The translations under genes and the position numbers were made by a program. Below the pieces are notes generated by a model, which worked only from the letters and a program-made list of their open reading frames with translations, had not been told where the DNA came from and ran no database searches. A stretch of 32,000 bases of DNA from Xanthomonas campestris pv. campestris str. ATCC 33913 (GTDB lineage Bacteria > Pseudomonadota > Gammaproteobacteria > Xanthomonadales > Xanthomonadaceae): positions 3,686,497 through 3,718,496 of the forward strand of contig NC_003902.1 in assembly GCF_000007145.1 (NCBI RefSeq), read 5' to 3'. Each line of letters starts with the position of its first letter. Position 1 is the stretch's first letter. This document shows positions 24,071-27,334 of the stretch, piece after piece.

Positions 24071-27000
24071 ATGGATCAAGAAAGCATCATCCGGTACTGG
24101 CACGCGGTCGAGTTGTTGCAACCGCAATCAGCACCCAAGCTGAAAAAACGCAGTAATCGATACGAAGCGTTTATCCATGACACGCCAATTCAGCGCCCGC
24201 TGCTTCCGTGGACCCCGGAAAGTATCGTCAGTAAGCAGAAGCTGCCCAAAAAGCGCATATGGAGCCACACGCTCTATGCTCATCTTTACGACAGTCGTCT
24301 CGTTGCCGAGAAGCTCGATGCAATGTACGGCGCCGATCAGGGCTACCAGGAACCCAAGTTTCGCGAGTCAGCCGTGTTTGCGGCAAAATTTACGGCGGGA
24401 GGGCGACTGGTCGATGACAGTTTCGTTCTATCAAGCGAAGCGTGGTTTCTTGGGCGGGTGTTGACCGGCAAAGATTGGACTAGAGGGTTCGAGACCGACC
24501 AAAAGACCCTCAGGGAGCGCGCTAACAGTCAGTTCGAGGGGGAGGTATCAAGCGAAGGCTTGCGCGAACTGACTCACTGGACCCTCCAGTTCCTGGGGTT
24601 GGGGGACTTTTTTGGTGAGATGGACCACCATCTTTTTCGCTTTCGCTCACAACCAATCAAGCCCGACAAACCCGAGTCGGAAGACGATCCGCTGAACAGC
24701 TTTTTGCTGGACGATCTTGCAGATGTCGTCGATGCGATCTCCAGAGGGGTGAAAAGCGAACCACTGGATCAGTACCTGCGTCATCACGATCCAAAGCCTC
24801 GCCTGCATATGGACGATCAGCGTGCGTCGCTGCCATTGATGGGACGACTGATGCCGGATGCGTATGCCAGTAGCTGTTGGCCTACAGAACACCATTTGGG
24901 TCTAGTTCATTCCCAACAGCTAGCAGTCAACACAATCCAGTCCACTCTTGCCGATGGTCACGGGCTGCTTGGCGTCAACGGCCCACCTGGTACGGGCAAG
25001 ACGACGCTATTACGCGACCTGATCGCAGCGATTATTACCAGCCGCGCCGATACGCTTGCCAAGCTATGTCGCGCATCAGATGCATTCGCGAGCGATGGAC
25101 GCGAAGCTGCCAACGACGGTGGTAAGCAGCAATACAGTTACAAGCTAAATCCTGCACTTTATGGCTTTGAAATCGTGGTCGCTTCATCCAACAACGGTGC
25201 TGTGGAAAATGTCACGCTCGAACTGCCTCAGCGAGACAGGATTGATGAAAGCTGGTTGCCAGAAGCAGAGTACTTCGCCGAGCTGGGGGAGCTGGTCTCG
25301 GGCAAACCTGCGTGGGGATTGATTTCTGGGGCATTGGGGAGCAAGGCACGACGCAACAAGTTCGTCGATCGTTACTTCTATGGTCAGCTCCCGTTTGGCA
25401 GCGAAGACAAGGCTGCTGCGGAGGTAGAAGACGAGACTGAGGTAGAGCCTGATGAGGAAGTCGACAACATTGTGGAGGCACTCTTTTCGACTCCCTCTGC
25501 TGAGACGGAACACGCTGACGATAGCGAGAACCAGAACGAAGATGCACCACCCGAGGAGGACAAGGGCCCGAAGGGTTTTTTGGGCTGGCTCAATGTGAGT
25601 GTAGAAGCGAATGCGGACCGCTCCCCAGAGCAACGTCAAGCGTTGTGGCAGCAAGCTGTCTCTGATTACGAGGCGGTCAAGGCGGAAGAACGCAAAGCAT
25701 GCAATGACGCCAGTCGAATTCGTGAGCTGATCTTGGCTATTCTCAAAATCAGGAAGACGATTGCCGAAGACTCCGAAAAACTCCGAGCATTCGAACAGTC
25801 GCTGATTGAGGTAGCAAATAAACTCTCGCGCTTGGATAACGAGGAAGGTGGCCCCGCCAACATGGCGCTCAAGAAGTGTATTGACGCGCTTGAGAAGCTG
25901 CCAAAAAAGCCCGGTTTCTGGTCAAATTTATTCAGTCTCGGAAATGCTCGACGCGATTGGAGGACCGCTCGGAAACTGCTAGAAAGCCAGCATGACATCG
26001 CTAAGGCTGAGTTCGCGCGGATCACGCGCCTCACCCAACAACTTGATAGCGATAAGGCCCAGGTGGAAGGAAAAATCGCTGAAGCGCGTCGAGTGCTTCA
26101 GGGATCGCAGCAGCAGGACAAAACGCTTACGAGCGATGCCTTGGAACTCGCAACCACTCATCAGGCTGACCATCTGCTCGCTTGGTTGAAAGACAATGCT
26201 ATCGGGCGTGGGGATGTCATTGAACTGGCCGAGCCCTGGCGCATTGAAGGCTGGCGGAAGGCACGGGCGCGGGTTTTCATCCAGGCATTGAAGCTCCACC
26301 GGACGTTCTTCGAGCTGGAAGCTTCAAGACTGCGCTCTAATTTGTTCATGATTAACGGGATGTTGGGTGGCTCACGCTTTCAAGGGATGTCGCGCGCCGC
26401 AATCCGTTCGGCATGGGCTTCTTTGTTCATGGTCGTTCCAGTGTTAAGCAGCACTTTTGCATCATTCGCTCGTTCGTTTGGCTCATTGGGCGCAAGTGAA
26501 ATTGGCTGGTTACTCGTGGATGAGGCTGGTCAGGCCGCACCTCAAGCTGCAGTCGGTGCGCTATGGCGGTCCAGGCGTGCGTTGCTGGTTGGAGACCCTC
26601 TGCAACTCAAGCCCATAGTCACCGTCTCCGATGCAGTGCTAGAACACATGCGTACACGTTACGGCGTTGATGCGCACTGGATTCCCAACCAAAAATCTGC
26701 ACAGGTACTGGCCGACGAAGCCACCCCTTGGGGGCGCATGGCTGGGCCTGCCGGCGGCAAGTCTTGGGTAGGATTGCCACTGGTCGTGCATCGCCGCTGC
26801 GACAGGCCCATGTATGCACTCGCCAACCGTATCGCCTACGACGGAGCGATGGTGTATGGAACGATCGCGCCGCGCGCCGACAAAGAAACCCGCGCCAGTC
26901 TGCTGACAGGGTGGATACATATCAGTGGCACATCCGAAGGAAATTGGGTGCCTGCAGAAGGCCAAGTCTTACGAGACCTGCTCAAGCGGCTACATGGCGA

Positions 27001-27334
27001 TGGCGTAGAGGCGAAAGATATTTCGGTCATCACTCCTTTCAAGGCTGTGCAGCAGAACCTCAAGCGCATGCTCCCAGGCAAAATGGTGTCCGGCACCATC
27101 CACACTATGCAGGGCAAAGAGGCATCGGTCGTCATAGTCATACTGGGGGGCAACACGGCAGGATCTGGCGCTCGCAACTGGGCTGTTTCGGAACCAAACC
27201 TGCTGAACGTGGCGGCGACGCGCGCCAAGCGGCGCCTCTATGTGATTGGCGACAGAAATGACTGGAAGCATCGACCACTGTTTTGCGATGTCATGGATCT
27301 ACTGCCGATTCAGGATATTCGGCCCCACGAGTAA
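24071..27334 (+). CDS. large SF1 helicase, Upf1/DNA2-like (AAA_11/AAA_12, COG1112 type), with unknown N-terminal domain and long acidic/coiled-coil insertion
   Basis: ATG 24071; the ORF-track start at 24068 is TTG. Motifs: Walker A GPPGTGKTT (nt 24980-25006), VVASSNNGAVENV, Walker B LLVDEAGQA (nt 26510-26536), LLVGDPLQLKP, TIHTMQGKEASVVIV, NLLNVAATRAKRRLYVIGD. Confidence 0.85.
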   Translation: MDQESIIRYWHAVELLQPQSAPKLKKRSNRYEAFIHDTPIQRPLLPWTPESIVSKQKLPKKRIWSHTLYAHLYDSRLVAEKLDAMYGADQGYQEPKFRESAVFAAKFTAGGRLVDDSFVLSSEAWFLGRVLTGKDWTRGFETDQKTLRERANSQFEGEVSSEGLRELTHWTLQFLGLGDFFGEMDHHLFRFRSQPIKPDKPESEDDPLNSFLLDDLADVVDAISRGVKSEPLDQYLRHHDPKPRLHMDDQRASLPLMGRLMPDAYASSCWPTEHHLGLVHSQQLAVNTIQSTLADGHGLLGVNGPPGTGKTTLLRDLIAAIITSRADTLAKLCRASDAFASDGREAANDGGKQQYSYKLNPALYGFEIVVASSNNGAVENVTLELPQRDRIDESWLPEAEYFAELGELVSGKPAWGLISGALGSKARRNKFVDRYFYGQLPFGSEDKAAAEVEDETEVEPDEEVDNIVEALFSTPSAETEHADDSENQNEDAPPEEDKGPKGFLGWLNVSVEANADRSPEQRQALWQQAVSDYEAVKAEERKACNDASRIRELILAILKIRKTIAEDSEKLRAFEQSLIEVANKLSRLDNEEGGPANMALKKCIDALEKLPKKPGFWSNLFSLGNARRDWRTARKLLESQHDIAKAEFARITRLTQQLDSDKAQVEGKIAEARRVLQGSQQQDKTLTSDALELATTHQADHLLAWLKDNAIGRGDVIELAEPWRIEGWRKARARVFIQALKLHRTFFELEASRLRSNLFMINGMLGGSRFQGMSRAAIRSAWASLFMVVPVLSSTFASFARSFGSLGASEIGWLLVDEAGQAAPQAAVGALWRSRRALLVGDPLQLKPIVTVSDAVLEHMRTRYGVDAHWIPNQKSAQVLADEATPWGRMAGPAGGKSWVGLPLVVHRRCDRPMYALANRIAYDGAMVYGTIAPRADKETRASLLTGWIHISGTSEGNWVPAEGQVLRDLLKRLHGDGVEAKDISVITPFKAVQQNLKRMLPGKMVSGTIHTMQGKEASVVIVILGGNTAGSGARNWAVSEPNLLNVAATRAKRRLYVIGDRNDWKHRPLFCDVMDLLPIQDIRPHE

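Follow-up and report, generated by a model that had tools for sequence, protein, structure and literature searches.

A nuclease-free relative of the Mokosh helicases, with an N-terminal domain of unrecognised fold, in a mobile-element mosaic of Xanthomonas campestris

What does a large helicase gene do when it stands alone among the remnants of mobile elements in a plant pathogen? The question is raised by a 32,000-nucleotide stretch of Xanthomonas campestris pv. campestris str. ATCC 33913 (contig NC_003902.1, positions 3,686,497 to 3,718,496 of the forward strand), referred to here as the window, in which one long open reading frame (ORF) encodes a helicase of the Upf1 type. An earlier note, made from the letters of the window alone, saw in it a candidate defence gene, acting singly or with a gene downstream. 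Comparison of sequence profiles places the encoded protein in a family that is a sister of the helicases of the Mokosh anti-phage systems: the helicase core and a large insertion within it are common to both, while the nuclease of Mokosh is absent and the N-terminus is different. The helicase is of an established class and plainly akin to those of Mokosh. Neither Pfam, NCBIfam (June 2026) and PADLOC 2.0 nor the searchable literature describes the combination seen here, a protein without a phospholipase D (PLD) nuclease that joins a conserved N-terminal domain of unrecognised fold to stand-alone status across a very large family. The reading favoured here, held tentatively and at a little under an even chance, is that the helicase is a nuclease-free, single-protein conflict module of the Mokosh-helicase lineage, directed against phages, plasmids or both.

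The ORF runs from 24068/24071 to 27334 on the + strand. The ATG at 24071, which is the start used by homologues, yields a complete coding sequence of 1087 amino acids plus stop, and an alternative TTG lies upstream at 24068. The earlier note had listed a full set of superfamily 1 (SF1) motifs in order, and all six (I, Ia, II, III, V and VI) are indeed found in the canonical order on two RecA domains. Its residue numbers are each too high by one because they were counted from the TTG and not from the ATG; in ATG numbering the Walker A lysine is K310 and the Walker B acidic pair is D817/E818, rather than K311 and D818/E819. The product is identical to AAM42404.1 (Q8P644_XANCP) of Xanthomonas campestris pv. 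campestris, annotated as a "DNA helicase related protein", and the 90%-identity cluster to which it belongs has 303 members, Pseudomonas syringae sequences among them. The parts of the gene are as follows.

24071..27334, + strand: coding sequence of a stand-alone Upf1-like SF1B helicase (from the ORF, Pfam and identity to AAM42404.1)
24071..24895, + strand: N-terminal domain, residues 1-275, predicted alpha/beta fold without a recognised relative (from the AlphaFold2 model and conservation)
24911..24931, + strand: SQQxAVN segment, residues 281-287, in a Q-motif-like position just 5' of Walker A (from the alignment)
24980..25006, + strand: Walker A, motif I, GPPGTGKTT, residues 304-312 (from the motif scan; invariant in homologue alignments)
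25175..25213, + strand: motif Ia, VVASSNNGAVENV, residues 369-381
25400..25561, + strand: acidic, variable, predicted disordered linker, residues 444-497 (from a predicted local distance difference test score, pLDDT, below 50, the alignment and composition)
25625..26158, + strand: predicted long antiparallel coiled-coil hairpin, helices 519-543, 545-608 and 625-696 (from the AlphaFold2 model)
26510..26536, + strand: Walker B, motif II, LLVDEAGQA, residues 814-822
26582..26614, + strand: motif III, LLVGDPLQLKP, residues 838-848
27095..27139, + strand: motif V, TIHTMQGKEASVVIV, residues 1009-1023
27197..27253, + strand: motif VI, NLLNVAATRAKRRLYVIGD, residues 1043-1061

The residues of the helicase motifs are invariant across 131 homologues of 31-99% identity, as are Q282, Q283 and A285 of the SQQxAVN segment in the 131-sequence alignment. 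This invariance suggests an active enzyme under selection, and the intact gene is predicted to encode an ATP-dependent helicase. Pfam detects AAA_11 (1.2e-13) and AAA_12 (4.6e-13), both far beyond chance, as well as Viral_helicase1. An AlphaFold2 model of the full-length protein, built on the 131 homologues, reaches a pLDDT of 85.7 and a predicted template modelling score (pTM) of 0.85. Its top Foldseek matches in the PDB are SETX (1.8e-14), Aquarius, IGHMBP2 (3e-12), Upf1 (5.5e-12), Dna2 (1.6e-11), ZNFX1 and nidovirus nsp13, and a sequence search against solved structures returns Dna2, IGHMBP2, SETX, Sen1 and Upf1. Because the sequence matches and the ranking of the modelled structure agree, the assignment to the Upf1-like SF1B class is secure, in keeping with the AAA_11/AAA_12, Upf1/DNA2-like class proposed before on the letters of the window. 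Only 26 residues remain after motif VI and the C-termini of homologues end alike, which rules out a PLD or other effector hidden at the C-terminus. A promoter scan of the locus was uninformative (2 sites against 1.9 expected).

Between motifs Ia and II, an insertion of about 430 residues splits the first RecA domain (RecA1). It contains the acidic linker, with D or E at 23 of its 54 positions, and the coiled-coil hairpin, whose helices 545-608 and 625-696 would extend roughly 95 Å if the model is correct. Pfam has no match within residues 385-790. The helical part of the insertion is common to MkoC, the single protein of Mokosh type II, whose profile aligns to residues 534-1063.

The N-terminal domain is predicted with confidence and resembles nothing in the collections searched. 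Modelled alone on the 131-sequence alignment, it reaches a pLDDT of 84.1 and a pTM of 0.76, with strands at 34-39, 63-74, 99-107 and 188-196 and helices packed on them. Foldseek found nothing in the PDB (best E 0.44, TM score 0.12) or in BFVD (best E 0.18), with TM scores of about 0.12-0.19 over both searches. Six diverse N-domains gave zero matches to Pfam at E values up to 10, phmmer gave zero matches to PDB sequences, and residues 1-270 match no model of Pfam, PADLOC or NCBIfam. The earlier description of the first 275 or so residues as unrecognised thus holds for sequence and structure alike, and no nuclease-type domain of a known family came to light with Pfam, PADLOC or Foldseek. PD-(D/E)xK, HNH, TIR and protease folds were rejected on the empty Foldseek searches of the PDB and BFVD. 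Low-ranking Foldseek matches to UCH proteases are noise; H51, D93 and C123 are semi-conserved in the family, not invariant, and are replaced in the clade to which the window protein belongs.

The domain is nonetheless a fixed part of the family. Of 150 representatives at 50% clustering, 143 have it by phmmer, and the others are mostly fragments. Residues W10, E14, P46, W47, W125, R190, D206, N209, S210, D215, R244 and W270 are universally conserved. The family divides into two N-domain clades. The major clade additionally keeps H51, R65, D93, R95, R112, D246, R248 and R269 (83-97%); in the clade of the window protein, which is associated with integrative and conjugative elements (ICEs) and plasmids, most of these are replaced (S, S, Q, P, ..., H, D, C). 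The ligand recognised may differ between the clades. The alignments contain no invariant constellation of a nuclease-like or protease-like kind, position 123 being C, A, S or another residue, and no invariant D...(D/E)xK pattern was found. This pattern of conservation is most readily read as that of a regulatory module that would bind a ligand, a nucleic acid or a protein, rather than that of an enzyme. A few members carry additions: a metagenomic protein of 1381 residues (P0180) has a caspase-like Peptidase_C14 domain at residues 13-219 fused ahead of the N-domain, another of 1312 residues (P0371) has DUF5710 at its N-terminus, and P0183 and P0244 have C-terminal extensions of about 300 residues that do not match Pfam.

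How far the family departs from Mokosh is best seen against MkoC itself. Among PADLOC models MkoC is the best match to the window protein (3.3e-61, residues 534-1063), followed by MkoA (2e-26), which bears out the kinship with the Mokosh helicases that had been proposed. Aligned with hhalign, the family and MkoC profiles agree over the helicase with a probability of 99.8%, while their N-terminal regions give 0.1%. The N-domain was therefore rejected as a divergent MkoC N-terminus, and the extension that seems to appear in a full-length alignment carries no confidence. In BLASTP only motifs II-VI align, at 26% identity. The window protein scores 206 bits against the MkoC profile, its best stretch covering positions 407-945 of 1136, and together with four diverse relatives it gives 196-235 bits over about positions 241-953 only. 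A genuine full-length MkoC scores 1387 bits over positions 1-1135 and carries PLDc_2 at residues 1024-1128. PF13091 is present in 120 of 120 MkoC relatives and in none of the listed matches to the window family, and the window helicase has no Pfam match to PLDc or Pkinase. Since it has neither the PLD nuclease nor the MkoC N-terminus, the protein does not constitute a Mokosh system.

The full-length MkoC used here was taken from an Arsenophonus plasmid, the yjhR loci fetched from E. coli being truncated pseudogenes. In E. coli K-12 and three other strains inspected, yjhR, the Mokosh type II gene, is a 3' fragment; that of K-12 retains motifs V and VI and, after them, about 190 residues with the PLD motif HSKIVIED. 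The fragment adjoins insertion sequence (IS) elements (ISEc52, ISEc23) in two of the strains, where a fragmentary phosphorothioate-dependent restriction gene also lies beside it.

Set beside the known systems, the architecture is one of familiar parts in an unfamiliar arrangement. MkoC of the E. coli YjhR type shares with the window protein the Upf1-like SF1B core, the same large helical RecA1 insertion and the form of a single-gene unit of about 1,100 residues on mobile DNA. It differs in carrying a C-terminal PLD with HxKxxxxD at about residue 1100, where the window protein has none, and in an N-terminus that is not detectably related; the 26% identity covers motifs II-VI only. Mokosh type I (MkoA/MkoB) has a related helicase in MkoA, whereas the window protein lacks a Ser/Thr kinase domain and an adjacent PLD gene. 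The eukaryotic helicases Upf1, Sen1/SETX, IGHMBP2, Aquarius, MOV10/MOV10L1 and ZNFX1 are the best structural matches over both RecA domains; they likewise have accessory insertions in RecA1 and no built-in nuclease. They have N-terminal regulatory domains of their own, such as the CH domain of Upf1 and the helical repeat of Sen1, whereas the window protein is bacterial and mobile, and its coiled-coil hairpin is much longer. Nhi and Dna2-type nuclease-helicases also join an SF1 helicase to an extra N-terminal domain, and Dna2 is among the sequence and structure matches. The window N-domain, in contrast, has no PD-(D/E)xK signature or fold match, and the PADLOC match to Nhi is merely 0.0028 and lies on the P-loop.

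The gene is neither rare nor an orphan, and its family is very large and ancient. In an exhaustive search of 1.84 billion representatives, 7,267 clusters match at E ≤ 1e-3; at E ≤ 1e-30 there are 1,707, counted at 50% identity. Nearly all of the best 150 are about 1,000-1,100 residues long and stop where the helicase does. GTDB data with one genome per species contain at least 564 stretches that code for a relative, and so at least 564 species; the phyla represented include Proteobacteria, Actinobacteria, Acidobacteria, Bacteroidota, Firmicutes, Nitrospirota and others. By tblastn, 787 plasmids carry a relative, 611 of them conjugative; 548 come from Klebsiella, and these probably represent one lineage. 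A search of 50,697 phage records gave 5 weak or partial matches, which rules out a phage origin.

Within this breadth the distribution is patchy, and the gene is transferred horizontally on ICEs, conjugative plasmids and variable islands. The Xanthomonas and P. syringae copies are 99% identical in protein and 97% in nucleotide sequence. Some strains of X. campestris pv. campestris carry truncated alleles of 795 (P0040), 746 (P0084) and 985 (P0508) residues, each 99-100% identical over the part retained, which indicates that the gene is dispensable and decaying in some lineages.

To ask whether a partner travels with the helicase, all the ORFs lying up to 6 kb from it were clustered for 71 loci. 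No conserved partner gene was found: the commonest neighbour family occurs at just 5 of the 71, and the gene is thus a single-gene module, one of the two arrangements envisaged by the earlier note. The other, a two-gene module with a downstream helix-turn-helix (HTH) gene, falls away because the gene in question, at 27659-27925, proves to be an IS3-family transposase OrfA (HTH_Tnp_1 6.2e-27, 99.5% identity to ISXca1). The conserved housekeeping context that would have argued for another role did not appear either, there being no conserved synteny. A Burkholderia ambifaria subfamily (L015-L017, 11212-12906) has two small ORFs of 295 and 268 residues directly downstream on the same strand; they belong to no Pfam family and could be a pair of partners particular to that subfamily.

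Among the immediate neighbours, housekeeping genes occur alongside genes of conflict systems or mobile elements. The latter include Zeta toxin, PIN, TrwC, DUF932, DUF4238, SLATT_5 and a methyl-directed restriction endonuclease, along with PD-Lambda-3, DpdF and a PD-T4-6-type kinase. A Burkholderia relative adjoins a Gabija-like OLD+UvrD pair, an Aeromonas relative is flanked by an HTH-SIR2 pair and by a conflict-system operon beside CRISPR I-F, and a Microbulbifer relative stands alone with an amylase gene on one side and malT on the other. Single loci, the Burkholderia and Aeromonas ones among them, are placed in defence islands. In Dickeya and P. aeruginosa the gene lies in Tn4371-like ICEs, within the variable region close to int, where DUF736 and ParB_N/DUF932/RadC flank it and DUF2958 is also nearby. 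The same slot in two ICEs could point to a gene of the Tn4371-type backbone. This is ruled out, since helicases of Tn4371-like ICEs are non-conserved ORFs that differ between elements (Ryan et al., PMC2789088) and the family extends far outside ICEs. On a P. aeruginosa plasmid a relative lies near mobI and umuDC. On a Klebsiella pneumoniae IncFIB/MOBH plasmid (L012, 7866-11207) a relative of 31% identity directly follows traF-traH-traG, and such relatives are a common, unannotated feature of clinically relevant conjugative plasmids of Klebsiella.

The window itself is a mosaic of mobile-element remnants, with IS3-type transposases, TraU, TraG_N and a GGDEF protein among them, and the helicase is the last gene of a fragment from a conjugative element. 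The direct neighbours of the helicase are a TrbM-like ORF and an IS3 element. The features that bear on its setting are these.

18665..27429: conjugative-element block with TrbL, a TrbJ-like gene, a MASE1 sensor, a small TrbM-like ORF and the helicase as last gene (from nucleotide comparison)
28150-28917, reverse strand: IS3 OrfB, with its OrfA at 28992-29258
29729-30837: another IS3 OrfA/OrfB

The block, 8.8 kb in length, is 97.3% identical in nucleotide sequence to P. syringae contigs, in the same gene order, and 95% identical to Xanthomonas sp. LMG 31884. It ends about 95 bp past the helicase stop codon. Near-identity over the whole block points to recent transfer between plant-pathogen genera. 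Directly 3' of the helicase, IS3-family elements pile up at 27596-31200, the ISXca1-like OrfA at 27659-27925 among them. The MASE1 gene (21343-22950, - strand) encodes a membrane protein of 535 residues with the sensor domain at residues 26-304; its C-terminal 230 or so residues have no Pfam match, and it lies beside the helicase in P. syringae too. An intact pair of AbiEi antitoxin and AbiEii nucleotidyltransferase toxin genes, of the type IV toxin-antitoxin or abortive infection kind, is found at 7481-9158 (+ strand) between remnants of a type IV secretion system. A TraI_2 ORF for a MOBH-type relaxase (11115-12137, + strand) is only 340 residues long, with an IS transposase gene (DUF772/DDE_Tnp_1, 12496-13920, - strand) directly after it; the relaxase may have been truncated by the IS. 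The setting of IS elements, toxin-antitoxin or Abi cargo and secretion-system debris is therefore as the earlier note described it. That note is right on the class of the protein, its N-domain and its single-gene form and wrong on the HTH partner, and the defence role that it proposed can still be put forward only conditionally.

If the helicase is a conflict module, the N-domain would gate the motor by binding some feature of a nucleic acid, or else a protein, whether foreign or of the host. The effector step would be ATP-driven 5'-to-3' translocation on RNA, single-stranded DNA or RNA-DNA intermediates of the invader. The motor could then strip proteins from these substrates, collapse replication or transcription intermediates, or pass the substrates to host nucleases. 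Upf1, Sen1, MOV10 and ZNFX1 of eukaryotes work likewise, with no nuclease of their own. A conflict role is supported by the kinship with Mokosh, the invariant motifs, the mobility of the gene and the SIR2, CRISPR I-F and Gabija-like neighbours, and further by the Peptidase_C14 fusion, the near absence from phages and the truncated alleles, which mark a dispensable accessory gene. Several points weigh on the other side. Mokosh defence depends on the PLD active site as well as on the ATPase site (10.1101/2022.05.11.491447), so the nearest known system does not act by helicase alone. No effector chemistry can be named for the N-domain, since it lacks a catalytic-looking invariant constellation. 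Strong matches to defence models hint at an enrichment but are modest in number, at roughly 6-8 of 129 immediate neighbours in a count taken without a background control, and many immediate neighbours are housekeeping genes. Searches of the literature by accession and by Mokosh terms gave no report on the protein, the family or the phenotype of a member. Finally, the clade of the window protein travels mainly as cargo of conjugative elements, which would fit service to those elements equally well.

This last point makes an element-serving role the chief rival and a live alternative, if a rather unlikely one: the helicase would act in establishment, replication or maintenance of its conjugative element in a new host, or in anti-defence, and not in defence of the host. 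It might, for example, resolve R-loops or transcription-replication conflicts on incoming single-stranded DNA. The window clade does occur in parts of ICEs where genes of the establishment type abound (DUF736, ParB_N, DUF932, RadC, DUF2958), after the tra genes of Klebsiella IncFIB/MOBH plasmids, near mobI and umuDC in P. aeruginosa and beside TrbL/TrbJ genes in the window and in P. syringae, and 611 of the 787 plasmids with a relative are conjugative. That count, however, is inflated by the 548 Klebsiella plasmids that are probably of one lineage, and conjugative elements commonly carry defence genes as cargo. Moreover, most loci across the family have no conjugation genes next door, some members stand alone in chromosomes, and the helicases of Tn4371-like ICEs differ from element to element (PMC2789088). 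An improbable further rival is that the helicase is half of a split system, a sensor or motor inert by itself, whose PLD or other nuclease effector is unlinked or varies with the host. Mokosh type I does keep helicase and PLD on two separate genes (10.1101/2022.05.11.491447), nuclease-NTPase systems generally work as complexes (10.1101/2025.07.10.664194), and the B. ambifaria subfamily has its two small conserved ORFs. Yet defence partners are almost always adjacent, the 71 loci have no conserved neighbour, and horizontal transfer as a single gene or within unrelated elements would part the helicase from an unlinked partner.

The remaining explanations have much less to recommend them. A housekeeping helicase of RNA or DNA metabolism would account for the relatives in many phyla and for some of the housekeeping neighbours. 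It is very improbable given the patchy, strain-variable distribution, copies 97-99% identical across genera, carriage on plasmids and ICEs, truncated alleles in some strains and absence of conserved synteny. That the gene is simply MkoC of Mokosh type II, and so already known, is scarcely credible. MkoC is its best PADLOC match, pipelines lenient on coverage might label the helicase accordingly, and the MkoC reported in Aeromonas trota might be a member of this family, but the identity is refuted by the absent PLD, by 206 bits against 1387, by the missing PF13091 and by the hhalign probability of 0.1% for the N-termini.

A bolder form of the conflict-module reading is possible, if doubtful: the family would be a widespread nuclease-free immune system of a single protein, in which a new N-terminal fold senses infection and a Upf1-like motor is the effector, a bacterial counterpart of MOV10, ZNFX1 and Upf1. 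The family could also be the ancestral form from which Mokosh then arose by capture of a PLD domain.

If the helicase proves protective, immunity from a Mokosh-type helicase would be shown to need no nuclease. Such a result would bear on how Mokosh senses infection, and on the proposed link from Mokosh to the eukaryotic piRNA, Upf1 and MOV10 helicases. The N-domain, with its confidently predicted fold and its presence in thousands of genomes, is a concrete target for structure determination and ligand discovery. For annotation, the strong partial match to MkoC means that lenient procedures may report "Mokosh type II" despite the missing nuclease. The gene is carried by several hundred conjugative plasmids of Klebsiella and by ICEs of plant and human pathogens, and whether it serves host defence or the fitness of the element, either role would matter for plasmid and phage ecology.

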